Position numbers and translations under genes: made by a program. A stretch of 64,000 bases of DNA, from contig JAVVWU010000002.1 in NCBI GenBank assembly GCA_036651955.1, positions 6,459 through 70,458 of the forward strand, given 5' to 3'. The notes beneath the pieces are model-generated. The model saw only the letters and a program-made list of their open reading frames with translations. It was not told where the DNA came from and did no database searches. The stretch is from Kiritimatiellia bacterium. GTDB taxonomy: Bacteria > Verrucomicrobiota > Kiritimatiellia > RFP12 > DVOR01. Shown here one piece after another: positions 8,642 to 23,966 of the stretch (positions are counted from its first letter, which is position 1; every line of letters begins with the position of its first letter).

Positions 8642-9538
8642 ATGGAGCAAGGCACAATTAAGAAACAGAATGAATCGGTAACGGTGCCCTTGTGTACGTC
8701 CTTTGTCGGATTGGATAGTGATGGTTGTGTCGTTGATACGATGGCTGCGAAACAACATGGATTTCTTCAACCGATGTTGGTGAAAAGCTTCGGACTCGAA
8801 GCGATGGCGGATGTTTATTGTGCGTGCGCAGATTTCGTTAATCTCTATTCGGTCACGCGTGGCATTACGCGGTTTAAGTCGATGCTCTTGAACTTTGAAT
8901 GTTTCAATCGTCATCCTGCTGTCATTGCGGCGGATTTTCCTCGGCTTCCGACGGAAGCTTTGCGCGCATTTACGGAGAGTGGACTTCCGATGGGTGATGC
9001 GGCACTTGTGCAATGGCTTGAGACGCACCGTTCGTCATCACTTGAGAAGCTGTTGGAATGGAGCCGTGCGGTCAACCGTGCCATTTTAGACTCGGGTGTA
9101 ACGTTCCCTGCTTATGAAGGCGCACGAGAAGCATTAAAACGGATGTGGAAACGCAGTGATACGGGCGTTGTCTCGCAATCGCCCGAACGTGTGTTGGAGC
9201 AAGATTGGGGATCGCAGCAATTATTACCTTACGTTGGGCAGATTGCGGGGCAGGAGTTAGGCGATAAGGTTCACCAATTAACCGTATTGACCGAGGGAAA
9301 GTATTTGCGTGAACGCGTATTGATGATTGGTGATGCGCCCGGAGATTTGGCAGCGGCGAAGGCGTTTGGTTGTCGTTTCTATCCGATTCTTCCCGGACGT
9401 GAAGAGGCGTCGTGGGCGCGATTCAATGAAACCATTTATGATGCTTTTTATGAAGAACGTTATACGTATGAACAGGAGGCAATTTGCGTTGCCGAGTTTG
9501 AGCGCGTTCTTCCCTCTGTTCCACCATGGGAACAGTGA
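8642..9538 (+). CDS. HAD-superfamily hydrolase
   Basis: Motif I VGLDSDGCVVDT and motif IV MIGDAPGD. Start taken at the ATG with RBS after the mazG stop. Confidence 0.6.
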   Translation: MEQGTIKKQNESVTVPLCTSFVGLDSDGCVVDTMAAKQHGFLQPMLVKSFGLEAMADVYCACADFVNLYSVTRGITRFKSMLLNFECFNRHPAVIAADFPRLPTEALRAFTESGLPMGDAALVQWLETHRSSSLEKLLEWSRAVNRAILDSGVTFPAYEGAREALKRMWKRSDTGVVSQSPERVLEQDWGSQQLLPYVGQIAGQELGDKVHQLTVLTEGKYLRERVLMIGDAPGDLAAAKAFGCRFYPILPGREEASWARFNETIYDAFYEERYTYEQEAICVAEFERVLPSVPPWEQ

Positions 9539-10672: not shown

Positions 10673-10921
10673 ATGGCAATTGAAACTGAAGTTTACAGTG
10701 ATGGTATTTATCAAATTCATTTGATTGAGAATATGATTCGTTTGGACTTTATGCGCCTTCAGCCAAGTCCTGAAAGTAAAACTCCTGTACCTAAACCATT
10801 TGAACGCGTCATTCTCAATCCACAAGGTTTCTTACGTACCTATGAGGCCATGGGACAAATCGTTGCAAAGCTTGAAGAAATGGGATTGGTTCATCGGAAC
10901 AATCCGCCGCCACAAGCCTAA
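10673..10921 (+). CDS. Small hypothetical protein (82 aa)
   Basis: Strong AAGGAG RBS 8 nt upstream. No recognisable domain. Confidence 0.45.
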   Translation: MAIETEVYSDGIYQIHLIENMIRLDFMRLQPSPESKTPVPKPFERVILNPQGFLRTYEAMGQIVAKLEEMGLVHRNNPPPQA

Positions 10922-11094
10922 GTCCTAATCGCTTCTCTTTATTTTACAACGTTATACGTTAATAGGCTCTGCCACATAGGTAGCGCACTTATTTCGATTG
11001 GTACTTATTTTCTGCCGTGAGGGAGACCGGTCGGTCGTCCTCTTTTTGTGCGCGTAGCTCAAATACGAGATGCAGCGTTGCTCCCAATGAGTCT

Positions 11095-11345
11095 GGACTT
11101 ACTCTGCATTAGTCCACATCGGCAGTCGGAAATGAAACACTACTTATGCAAAATGGCACAGTTGTGGCACGGTTGCTTTGAAGCCGCGCCTCACTGAGGT
11201 GAAAGTCTTACCTCAGTGAGGTAGACCTCGCACCTCATTGACCCTGACCTCGTACCTCAATGAGGTACGCAATCGAATCTTTTGGAATATCTCTTGAAAT
11301 CTGTGTGGCGTATGACTAAAGCTCTGAAAATGAATGCATAAGGTT
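11095..11345. repeat. Conserved intergenic module, copy A. It contains a TGGCAC direct repeat, two tandem hairpins, a conserved 3' box and TGCATAAGT motifs.
   Basis: About 200 bp is alignable to 23556-23755 at roughly three-quarters identity by eye. Confidence 0.65.
11154..11169 (+). promoter_or_regulatory. Sigma-54-like -24/-12 element TGGCACagttgTGGCA (GG-N10-GC spacing)
   Basis: Exact -24 TGGCAC. The -12 reads TGGCA rather than TTGCA. Copy B has 1 nt less spacing. Confidence 0.3.
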
Positions 11346-11490
11346 GCTCGCTCGGACAGCAGTTACCGGAATGTGCGGAGTGGCTCATTCTTTCTTATGA
11401 GGACTATTATCTGCGTCTAATTTCTTGCATAAGTGTTGTTGTAAGATCTCAATCCTATTTCATTTGACCTTTTTATAAAAGTTCCTTTAC

Positions 11491-11517
11491 CTCATAATAG
11501 CCTCTTCCTATTATGAG
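11491..11517. promoter_or_regulatory. Perfect 10-bp inverted repeat CTCATAATAG-N7-CTATTATGAG upstream of the DegT locus
   Basis: Seen directly. No T-tract on either strand, so operator-like rather than a terminator. Confidence 0.4.
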
Positions 11518-11659
11518 CGATGGTCTTACTCTCGCCGCGTAATCGATTGACAAAGGCTCTAAATCTGAAGCTGGATTGCTTTGATGGCTCGGATTTCGTA
11601 TCATTAGCGCTACAACTTAATTTTATAGCGAAGAGCGCCCCTGTTGAGGGTACCTTATT

Positions 11660-12805
11660 TTGAAAGTAGGGATACGAGTGAAAAAATTTGAAACGCCGAT
11701 ACTTGTTACGCGTCCATGGCTTCCTCCATTGGAGGAGTTCTCACAGGGACTAGCTGAAATCTGGAAGAATCAATGGCTGACAAATAATGGGCCGGTATTG
11801 GAACGTTTCCAAGCGGCACTCGCGCAACAGTTGGGATTGAGTACGAGGAATTTGTCGTTATTTGCAAATGGGACTTTAGCACTTGAGTTGATGTTTCAAA
11901 CGTTAGGGCTTGCCGGAGCAGAAGTTGTTACGACACCTTTTACATTTGTTGCAACCAGTCATGCGTTACGCCGGATCGGTGCAATTCCTGTATTTGCAGA
12001 TGTCGATCCGGAAACGCTATGCCTTTCACCTGAAGCGGCTGAACGAATGATTACGTCACGTACCAAGGCAATTGTTCCTGTACACGTCTACGGACATCCT
12101 TGCGATATCGATGGTTTTGCGCGATTGGGAGAAAAGTACGGGCTGAAAATCGTTTATGATGCGGCTCACTCATTTGGTGTTACGCTTGATGGCGCTTCAA
12201 TTGCGACTTATGGCGATGCGTCTATGTTTAGTTTCCATTCCACAAAACTCTTTCATAGTATTGAAGGCGGGTTGCTAACTTTTCGAGATGCAACAATTCA
12301 AGGTGGATTAGAGTGTTTGCGCAATTTCGCGATTACTTCTGAAACGACGTGTGATGCGATTGGCACGAATGCCAAAATGAACGAATTTGCTGCACTTATG
12401 GGCTGTTGTGGGCTTCGTCAATTGCCCGATCTGATTGCTCATCGCAAGGCGATTTAGGAGATTTACGCTCAAGCATTTGAAGGAACGCCAGTGAAATTGT
12501 TGGCGCGTCCAACGCATATGGCGCGGCATACGGTTGGACACAACTATGCTTACTGCCCTGTACTTCTTCCTGATTTTGAAATGCGAGAGCGCGTTTATGC
12601 GCGATTGAAAGCGTTTAATGTCTTTACACGTCGCTACTTTTACCCTCTGCTTTCGGCATTTGCTCCCTATCAAGATACGCGTGGAAATACGCCCATTGCC
12701 AAAAAAGCAGCTGATTGTGTCTTAACGCTTCCAACCTATCATGGGCTTGCCCTTGAAGATGTTCGTGTCATTGCTCAAAACGTTGTAGAGCTTGTTCAAT
12801 GTTGA
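11660..12805 (+). pseudogene. DegT/DnrJ/EryC1 (ArnB/PglE-like) sugar aminotransferase interrupted by an in-frame TAG at 12455-12457
   Basis: The two ORFs 11660-12457 and 12491-12805 are in the same frame. Conceptual read-through gives ...HRKAI*EIYAQAF..HNYAYCPVLL, a contiguous DegT sequence. Confidence 0.7.
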
Positions 12806-13620
12806 AACGTCTTATTATTGTTGGTGCTAGCGGTATGGGGCGTGAAGTCGCGTCTTATGCAAAAGAGGCTTTGCCGACACTTTCAATCGCAGGATTCTTG
12901 GATGATCGATCTGATTTATTGAACTCCTTTGATGGATTACCGCCCATCCTTGGATCTGTCGAAGCGTGTCATCCGCAAAAGAACGATTACTATCTTGTGG
13001 CTGTAGGTGATGCAGAAGCGCGTGCGCATTATGTTGATTGTCTTATGGTTCGTGGGGCGCATTTTGCAACGCTTATTCATCCGACTGCGTTTGTCGCGTC
13101 ATCAGCAACGCTGGGAGAAGGATGTATTATTTGCCCACAAAGTGCGGTTTCTACAAACGTTCTAATGGGGCGGCATACAATCCTCAATTTAGGTGCATCG
13201 GTAAGTCATGATTGTGAAGTGGCAGATTTTTGTACGCTCTCTCCGGGCGCTCGACTTACAGGCGCCTGTCATTTAGGACAAGGCTGTTTTCTTGGGGTGA
13301 ACGCGTCGCTGATTCCGAAGATTCATTTGTCCGCGTACACGAGTGTGGGTGCAGGGGCTGTTGTAATCCACGCCGTTCCAGAATGTCATACAACGCTTGC
13401 AGGCGTTCCGGCGCACGAGATTTCTCGTGGGGGGGGGTGGAATTCGTGGCAAAATCTCCATCAAAAAGAATGTAATTGCATAAAGTTTACGTCTTCTGTC
13501 AGATTACAAAGAGATTCTAAACAACACATTTATTTTGATACAAAGCGTACTTTCTCTAAGAGGGAAAGTACGCCGTCATTTTTACGATTATACAGTTCAT
13601 CAATTATGAAGGTAAGTTAA
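12799..13620 (+). CDS. NeuD/PglD-family sugar N-acetyltransferase (hexapeptide repeat). The last ~60 aa are likely an artefact of the poly-G tract at 13431-13439; the -1 frame ends at 13481.
   Basis: MLKRLIIVGASGMGRE N-terminus with left-handed beta-helix repeats. The ORF runs through an intrinsic terminator. Confidence 0.7.
   Translation: MLKRLIIVGASGMGREVASYAKEALPTLSIAGFLDDRSDLLNSFDGLPPILGSVEACHPQKNDYYLVAVGDAEARAHYVDCLMVRGAHFATLIHPTAFVASSATLGEGCIICPQSAVSTNVLMGRHTILNLGASVSHDCEVADFCTLSPGARLTGACHLGQGCFLGVNASLIPKIHLSAYTSVGAGAVVIHAVPECHTTLAGVPAHEISRGGGWNSWQNLHQKECNCIKFTSSVRLQRDSKQHIYFDTKRTFSKRESTPSFLRLYSSSIMKVS
13545..13584 (+). terminator. Rho-independent terminator (10-bp stem gcgtactttc/gaaagtacgc, then a T-run)
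   Basis: Seen directly. It lies inside the annotated 3' extension of ORF 12799-13620. Confidence 0.6.
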
Positions 13621-23471: not shown

Positions 23472-23499
23472 AATTCGTCTTATTTTGACTCCCAAAGTC

Positions 23500-23760
23500 C
23501 TGCTTATGCACGGACTCTATTCTGCATAAGTCCACATAAGAGGTCATAACAAAAGCAGCACTTATGCAAAGTGGCACAGTCTGGCACGGTAATGAAGATG
23601 CGGCGGCCTCAGTGAGGTAAGCCCTCTACCTCACTGAGGTACGAGGTCAGGGTCAGTGAGGTACGAGCTCTACCTCATTGAGGTGCGCGACGAAACGTTT
23701 TGGAATATCTCTTGGAATCTGCGAGGAATAGTACTAAAGCTTGGAAAATGAATGGAATGG
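23500..23760. repeat. Conserved intergenic module, copy B
   Basis: Alignable to copy A. Hairpins at 23607-23639 and 23653-23681. Confidence 0.65.
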
Positions 23761-23966
23761 GCGGGTGTGAAGTCTCTTTGTGTGCCAGAAAGTTATGAAC
23801 CTATTTCAACACGCTCAGAAGGAGTACTTTTTGCAGTCACAATTCTGCATAAGTGTAGTTTCGTTTCCGACGTCTATTTAGTTTATAGGCAGCGGCTGTG
23901 TCTCTTCCGGAGGTTTTGAAGCCACGCGCCATAAGGGGAGCCCGTCAGAGGAAGGGAGGCTTTTGG

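Follow-up and report, generated by a model that had tools for sequence, protein, structure and literature searches.

What is a 9-bp sequence doing when it recurs several times, in both orientations, in two intergenic regions of one bacterial genome? The question is raised by a 64,000-nucleotide stretch of DNA from a Kiritimatiellia bacterium (GenBank assembly GCA_036651955.1, contig JAVVWU010000002.1, positions 6,459 to 70,458; "the window" below means this whole stretch), in which the 9-mer TGCATAAGT and the 8-mer TGCATAAG are concentrated in two places. The original prediction, made from the letters alone, took these copies for binding sites of a DNA-binding protein or for the remnant terminal repeats of a small mobile element. 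The two loci are copies, here called A and B, of one non-coding intergenic module about 370 bp long, present in at least three copies in a single uncultured gut species; comparison of three copies suggests that TGCATAAGT most likely represents the arms of stems in a folded element, and less likely sites for a protein.

The recurrence of TGCATAAGT is real, strongly non-random, and not an effect of composition. Exact TGCATAAG occurs eight times in the window, counting both strands, where shuffled sequence leads one to expect 2.10 ± 1.51 and reached eight or more in one of 100 shuffles. Rather than being common throughout, seven of the eight matches lie within the ~740 bp of the two loci, and the single match in the remaining 63 kb (12854-12861, minus strand) falls within a coding region. 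In the copy A locus the matches are at 11143-11150 (minus), 11335-11342 (plus) and 11426-11433 (plus), with a degenerate variant, TGCATTAG, at 11105-11112; in the copy B locus they are at 23503-23510 (minus), 23523-23530 (plus), 23561-23568 (minus) and 23846-23853 (plus). The four sites per locus that had been proposed are thus real, as are their orientations (four of the eight coordinates were right, those given as 11142, 11334, 11427 and 23562 being off by one), but only three positions per module turn out to be conserved. All five window copies of the exact 9-mer are in the two loci, a confinement that composition would not produce, and the three found in a further 20.5 kb of the same species (contig L068) are all in a third copy of the module. 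Over these 84.5 kb, eight copies are therefore present where ~0.6 would be expected by chance, each at one of the conserved positions designated S1, S2 and S4 below. Since A and B are homologous copies, the eight sites originally noted cannot be counted as independent of one another.

Copies A and B are homologous throughout and lie in the same orientation, and the module is the only dispersed repeat in the window. Copy A is between serC, followed by an 82-aa open reading frame (ORF), and a DegT/PglD sugar-modification operon; copy B is between dusB and dnaE; and copy C (L068 9150-9545, minus strand), found via the gene adjoining the join in the hybrid contig L003, is upstream of a batD operon. 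Each of the three points at the 5' end of the next gene, at distances of ~245, 125 and 192 nt. The species is known from several metagenome-assembled genomes (MAGs), and contigs of sister MAGs break at or inside modules (L063 ends at 23499, four bases before the first motif of copy B, while L004, L005 and L006 terminate in or just before copy A), which is how a multi-copy repeat behaves. No further copy was found when a profile of the three (nhmmer) was run against 695 kb of collected contigs. The orthologous dusB regions of four related genera (83 kb) had neither module nor synteny, the nearest other species in the protein collection (DusB identity 76%) had no synteny at the module sites, and a contig reached via a protein of the window has an end without a module. 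In an Rfam search of the window at the gathering score, only three tRNAs elsewhere were found and the module was unmatched; a permissive Rfam scan of 10900-11700 gave only noise (E above 5); module B was unmatched by BLAST against plasmids and phages; and a literature search on the motif strings returned only work unrelated to bacterial regulation.

What do the three copies have in common? Read in module orientation, their alignment shows the block order S0, S1, a 22-nt unconserved stretch, S2, a G-rich segment, four palindromes, a core, a variable stretch, S4 and CTATTT (coordinates below are on the plus strand of the window, except that the palindrome arrays have no strand assigned). S1, TCTGCATAAGTCCACAT, is a 17-nt invariant run (23521-23537 in B), with copy A taken from the sister strain L001: the window itself has TCTGCATtAGTCCACAT at 11103-11119, with the 9-mer at 11105-11113, and its degeneracy is due to a T at 11110 private to this strain, sister MAG contigs that span the site carrying A and the exact motif. 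S2, ACTTATGCAAA, is an inverted, 11-nt invariant run (11142-11152 and 23560-23570), and S4, TGCATAAGTG, an invariant run of 10 nt (11426-11435 and 23846-23855). S1, S2 and S4 all rank among the four longest invariant blocks of copies whose other sequence is 35-50% identical. From S1 to S2 the span is exactly 46 bp and the spacer exactly 28 nt in A, B and C, although the spacer sequence is not conserved; S2 and S4 are 284, 286 and 287 nt apart in the three copies. As originally noted, inverted repeats do stand around the hairpins, S2 and S4 forming an inverted pair that bounds most of this small dispersed element.

Between S2 and S4, the G-rich segment has the form TGGCAC..TGGCAC in A and B; it is TGGCACAGTTGTGGCACGGT in A (11154-11174), where its 3' part (11161-11170) is the predicted 5' strand of a helix enclosing the palindrome array, and TGGCACAGTCTGGCACGG in B (23572-23589), where it would play the same part. 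The four palindromes, CCTCAnTGAGG, recur every 22 bp exactly in A, B and C alike, and are intergenic in each copy. In A (11189-11265) they start at 11189, 11211, 11233 (degenerate) and 11255 and are predicted to form two long hairpins; in B (23607-23683) they start at 23607, 23629, 23651 (degenerate) and 23673. They are followed in A by GGTACGCAAT (11264-11273), the predicted 3' strand of the enclosing helix. The 24-nt core, TTTTGGAATATCTCTTG-AATCTG, is exact or near-exact in A, B and C (TTTTGGAATATCTCTTGAAATCTG at 11280-11303 in A, TTTTGGAATATCTCTTGGAATCTG at 23698-23721 in B) and is predicted to be mostly unpaired except for its TTTT, which in A (at 11280) would pair with the AAA tail of S2. 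The ~100 nt from core to S4 are 38% identical. CTATTT, 19-20 nt past S4 (11455-11460 and 23874-23879), is invariant and is the last conserved block, so that homology extends beyond S4. The fourth motif site is copy-specific. That of A, at 11335-11342, is an extra TGCATAAG followed by G rather than T, present in every strain of A, where B has TGGAATGG and C CGACAAAT; that of B, CTTATGCA at 23503-23510, is its S0, partly present in C and absent from A, the exact 8-mer occurring only in B. In A, S0 is GGACTTA (11095-11101), which in sister strains would pair with TAAGTCC at 11109-11115.

The explanation to which we give the most weight, while putting it somewhat short of an even chance, is that the copies of TGCATAAGT are conserved stem arms of a lineage-specific, dispersed, non-coding folded element. 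In single-stranded form, S2 (read as ACTTATGCA) would pair with S4 (TGCATAAGT), 284-287 nt downstream, in a 13-15-bp helix closing a domain of ~300 nt, within which would lie an inner helix, two long hairpins made from the four palindromes, variable hairpins and the invariant core, most of it unpaired. S1, with the same sequence as S4 but 28 nt upstream of S2, would be held in a local hairpin with S0; alternatively it could pair with S2, in competition with S4. The single strand would most likely be RNA with the same sense as the downstream gene, transient single-stranded DNA being the alternative; transcription of the element, its strand and the use of alternative pairing are what we infer. 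Such an arrangement would also offer a reason for the fixity of the 9-mer: with S2 obliged to match S1 and S4 alike, no base could change without several compensations at once, and these three sites would be frozen while the other helices are free to drift and co-vary.

Several features of the predicted folds point this way. In the RNAalifold consensus, S2:S4 closes the whole domain, and its helix runs 4-6 bp past the motif with bases that are specific to each copy and yet complementary (ACACT/GTTGT in A, GCAGC/GTAGT in B, ATGT/GCAT in C). On the S4 side the extension reads GTTGTT in A (11435-11440) and GTAGTT in B. Over the six positions flanking S2:S4, 14 of 18 cells are paired within copies as against 22 of 36 when partners are taken from different copies, and random flanks would give 14 of 18 with p ~0.001. 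The ensemble probability of S2:S4 is 0.98 in A, 0.53 in B and 0.91 in C, copy B being split between S2:S4 and the alternative S1:S2 (0.45); with S1 omitted from the fold, S2:S4 closes both the minimum-free-energy and the centroid structures. S1 has an upstream partner in each of the three, in a different register each time: an 8-bp hairpin of -10.8 kcal/mol in the L001 copy of A, one of 9 bp and -11.0 kcal/mol in B, and one of -7.2 kcal/mol in C, the partners in B and C also differing in sequence. In the inner helix, the partner of the G-rich segment is the GTRCGC that follows the last palindrome (RNAalifold columns 25-34 with 130-138), and two of the pairs have changed in a compensatory way; in the variable region, a hairpin (columns 250-276) keeps its pairing through five double changes. 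Over the whole element, 88.8% of cells are paired versus 36-47% with slid partners, and there are 17 doubly changed pairs versus 8.3 ± 2.0 in shuffles; a strain polymorphism in module A (A/G at 11267) restores a C-G pair. The folds are more stable than those of shuffled sequences (z-scores of -3 to -4), and the consensus energy is -58.3 kcal/mol for the plus strand versus -45.8 for the minus strand.

Some observations weigh against base-pairing as the explanation. Both strands fold well, and the excess of G-U over A-C in the four inverted-repeat helices, the unbiased subset for this count, is only 9 to 3 and not significant (p = 0.15), so that the choice of strand is tentative. The covariation figures are soft, because the structure was predicted from the same three related sequences on which it is tested, and the nine core pairs of S2:S4 never vary and so say nothing for or against pairing. 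Scans for sigma-70 promoters and terminators found none at conserved positions of the module. Three further features would be as easily or more easily accommodated by a protein that recognizes duplex DNA: the invariance of S1 over 17 nt exceeds the needs of pairing, a spacer fixed at 28 nt while its sequence is unrelated among copies is easier to understand as the distance between two bound sites, and the exact 22-bp phasing of the palindromes, about two helical turns, would also suit proteins lined up along one face of the DNA.

These three features are also part of the case for S1, S2 and S4 as operators, bound on duplex DNA by a single sequence-specific protein, an explanation we consider possible but on balance unlikely. 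S1 and S2 would be an inverted pair 37 bp apart, centre to centre, with the distal S4 able to loop across the phased palindrome array, and the resulting nucleoprotein complex could regulate the gene downstream, or govern an event of recombination or replication. The 9-mer is unchanged at three positions, in both orientations, while its flanks diverge, as would be expected of such sites, and the same 9-mer is found in origin-like repeats of a phage contig, L011, with inverted arrays of the 8-mer also present in two intergenic loci of an Omnitrophota MAG. However, these matches came from searching huge collections for this very sequence, and of the other matches looked at, most prove to be single hairpins or palindromes in which the 9-mer happens to occur. 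Among the genes next to each copy there is no candidate for the binding protein, the distance from S2 to S4 varies, and neither the copy-specific complementary extension of S2:S4 nor the S0 partners of S1 would be expected of protein sites. It is on account of these last two, the extension and the S1 partner in every copy, that the tests, resting as they do on predicted structures, appear to favour base-pairing over protein recognition. A more elaborate proposal starts from the clustering of this 9-mer, in an origin-like array, beside the Prim-Pol/VapE gene of L011: the chromosomal modules would be cis sites read by a protein of a mobile element, acting as a phage-responsive, satellite-like pseudo-origin, a decoy titrating the phage initiator or a switch sensing infection, with the S2-S4 fold as payload. 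This we regard as a long shot. Neither homologues of its primase-helicase nor its sample of origin links phage L011 to this host.

Could the module instead be a mobile element in its own right, of the non-autonomous kind represented by miniature inverted-repeat transposable elements (MITEs), BOX and bacterial interspersed mosaic elements (BIMEs), with TGCATAAGT as terminal or subterminal sites for a transposase acting in trans and the structure a by-product of inverted repeats? Dispersal of the element to three or more intergenic sites of one genome, its absence from the 83 kb of four related genera, sister contigs that break at modules, an inverted pair of 10-15 bp (S2/S4) around a 275-bp body, and palindromes that show signs of DNA rearrangement (a 58-bp segment that is inverted, and the hybrid contig L003) would all be in keeping with this, as would a length within the MITE range and the stable predicted folds typical of such elements (PMC3184786). 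Yet MITEs are defined by terminal inverted repeats and target-site duplication (PMC3184786), and the sites suggested as remnant terminal repeats do not behave as classical ones: homology among copies continues 37-60 bp to the left of S2, through S0 and S1, and to CTATTT on the right of S4, and no inverted-repeat relation holds between the outermost conserved blocks. No target-site duplication was found at either candidate boundary (none convincing at S0/CTATTT, and the flanks of S2/S4, AACACT/GTTGTT, AGCAGC/GTAGTT and ATATGT/GCATTA, are complementary rather than direct repeats), nor, in the sequence covered, was an empty site, a related insertion sequence, or a plasmid or phage match. Conservation of the inner 9 bp beside outer bases that vary yet stay complementary is the opposite of what recognition of a terminus by transposase would give, and divergence is block-wise (35-50% between blocks versus 100% within), which suggests old copies under selection rather than decaying copies of a transposon. 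A mobile origin of this type thus seems quite unlikely. An inverton, a phase-variable promoter with S2 and S4 as its inverted repeats and a recombinase encoded elsewhere (like E. coli fimS or the Mpi-dependent promoters of Bacteroides), is very improbable. Inverted repeats of 9-11 bp, separated by 284-287 bp and directed toward operons downstream (one of them DegT/PglD), in a homologous module family of a gut bacterium, recall such switches, and the fimS switch, at 314 bp with 9-bp repeats, is close to S2-S4 in both size and repeat length. Against this, the orientation is the same in all assemblies of A, six full (window, L001, L002, L007, L008, L009) and one partial (L004), and likewise in B (window) and C (L068 and partial L003), as far as assemblies can show; no recombinase domains are seen in the genes flanking A, B or C and no sigma-70-like promoter at conserved positions inside; and the gene next to one copy, dnaE, is an unlikely target for phase variation. 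Finally, the 9-mer might have no function of its own, recurring between loci by duplication of the module and within each by chance or as a relic of old internal duplications. Homology of A and B throughout does make recurrence across loci expected, and 11335 and 23503, out of the original eight, are copy-specific. This is nonetheless hard to credit: by a rough estimate, three exact copies of one 9-mer in ~350 bp are expected ~4e-4 times, and the three sites are invariant in copies whose identity otherwise falls to 35-50%.

Three other interpretations were rejected. A sigma-54 promoter (TGGCAC-N5-TTGC) is suggested by TGGCACAGTTGTGGCA in A, which has the right spacing, but in B the spacing is 1 bp shorter and in C, which has GGGCTGTGGCGTGGCT, TGGCAC is absent; this segment instead co-varies with a downstream partner. 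A small ORF fails because no ORF within the module is conserved across the copies. An origin of the iteron type is at odds with three single sites, the lack of an AT-rich tract and housekeeping neighbours.

The phage array that prompts the last comparison was met in a pattern scan of viral contigs. The nine copies of TGCATAAG in L011 lie at 9020-9400, in an intergenic region that has a Prim-Pol/VapE primase-helicase gene on one side and an SNF2-like helicase gene on the other; they form tandem doublets and inverted pairs, with an AT-rich tract in their midst, and by its sequence the array looks like an iteron-type origin built on the 9-mer that the host modules also use. With three composition-matched control 9-mers there were 19 matches and no cluster like that of L011. 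Like the iteron-type origins of SaPI-type islands and L011, the module has TGCATAAGT in both orientations and inverted pairs 26-30 nt apart; unlike L011, with its doublets by Prim-Pol/VapE, it has no initiator gene, and the two share no similarity beyond the 9-mer. Elsewhere, a genome-collection scan for TGCATAAGT-N26-30-ACTTATGCA returned 43 taxonomically scattered matches, approximately the chance number, none with other features of the module and several being lone hairpins or palindromes around the 9-mer; viral contigs gave six matches to the S1 17-mer, at chance level, and none to the module core; and a metagenome scan for a pair of palindromic units found six matches in unrelated organisms, none with TGCATAAG. 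Judging from the arrays in L011 and in the Omnitrophota MAG, the 9-mer can serve as a protein site. That MAG (JBAZGE01) has two homologous hairpin-like elements between housekeeping genes (L029 2885-2990 and L053 5040-5145), with arms that are 8-nt-period repeats of TGCATAAG and CTTATGCA. Intergenic arrays of the module's palindrome, as ACCTCAsTGAGGT with a 21-22-bp period and lacking TGCATAAG, were seen at L057 75-170, L061 7037-7156, L060 3241-3283 and L062 7823-7865, on unrelated metagenome sequences of GC content 0.51-0.64; sequence loosely like the module core TTTTGGAATATCT comes after the array in L057 and in L061.

As judged from its sequence, the element is a new, species-restricted, structured intergenic repeat, with no Rfam match and no relative found outside the species. 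By analogy, its organisation comes closest to BIMEs, and to BOX and other MITEs as modular, foldable elements. BIMEs consist of regularly spaced palindromic units; repetitive extragenic palindromic (REP) sequences are present in more than 100 copies per genome, have a 5' GTAG, and are associated with the RAYT transposase (PMC2817692); and REP clusters such as E. coli REP325 are transcribed (PMC2817692, PMC4550694). The module resembles the REP/BIME elements of enterobacteria and Xanthomonas in being an extragenic mosaic of regularly spaced palindromic units and conserved linkers, in several copies, and REP clusters can be transcribed and fold, with units that can flip orientation. It differs from them in having two repeat types (TGCATAAGT and CCTCAnTGAGG) along with a unique 24-nt core, in number (three modules in ~85 kb of this species, versus hundreds per genome), in units that are AT/GC-balanced 15-mers rather than GC-rich, and in that GTAG or CTAC adjoins only some of them. 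Pneumococcal BOX (boxA, repeated boxB, boxC), Correia, RUP and ERIC elements offer a second parallel, by published description rather than sequence similarity in the case of BOX: tandem units in the middle with one block to their left and another to their right, and ends that can pair, in intergenic, multi-copy elements with a stable predicted fold that are often transcribed and can affect their neighbours (PMC3184786). The module departs from these in its conservation past the inverted repeats, its block-wise divergence, its lack of a target-site duplication and of any known cognate insertion sequence. The likeness to the invertible promoters of E. coli fimS and of Bacteroides, homologous families in the latter case being served by one recombinase, is confined to the inverted repeats around ~285 bp upstream of an operon: the module has no flipped form in the assemblies, nearby recombinase or internal promoter match, and S1 is outside the bracket.

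Two rearranged forms of the palindromic region were seen. A 58-bp segment comprising units u2-u4 (11210-11267 versus 23627-23684) is inverted in A relative to B and C, with 91% complementarity and no visible breakpoints. In the sister-MAG contig L003 (1850-2125), the left half of module A is fused via palindromic units to the reverse-complemented left half of module C, a join that could be either a palindrome-mediated chromosomal inversion or an assembly chimera over a 40-bp identical stretch.

The surroundings of copy A have some peculiarities of their own. The 82-aa ORF just upstream (10673-10921) has no NCBIfam match and no recorded Pfam match, and is exactly conserved in nine contigs of the species. 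Between it and the module, at 11019-11048, is a hairpin followed by TTTTT (GAGGGAGACCGGTCGGTCGTCCTCTTTTT), uncalled by the terminator scan, which by its sequence looks like the terminator of the upstream operon; if so, module A is probably not simply read through. Downstream, the gene for a DegT/DnrJ-family aminotransferase (11660-12805) is split into two ORFs, 11660-12457 and 12491-12805. An intact 375-aa homologue in L001 aligns over its full length, in one frame, at 98.4% identity, indicating an in-frame stop near 12455-12457 in this strain, due to either a nonsense mutation or a sequencing error.

Kiritimatiellia are abundant and almost uncultured bacteria of guts and sediments, for which we found no described regulatory RNA or repeat element. 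The module is a compact, strongly constrained non-coding unit, and the genes it precedes are unrelated to one another: dnaE and those of a sugar-modification operon and a batD operon. Should it act as RNA, it would represent a new ~300-nt family, possibly one that switches between competing stems; if it is a protein-bound DNA module, the 9-mer would define a regulon or a site of recombination or replication. The module also breaks short-read assemblies of this species, and its palindromes may drive inversions.

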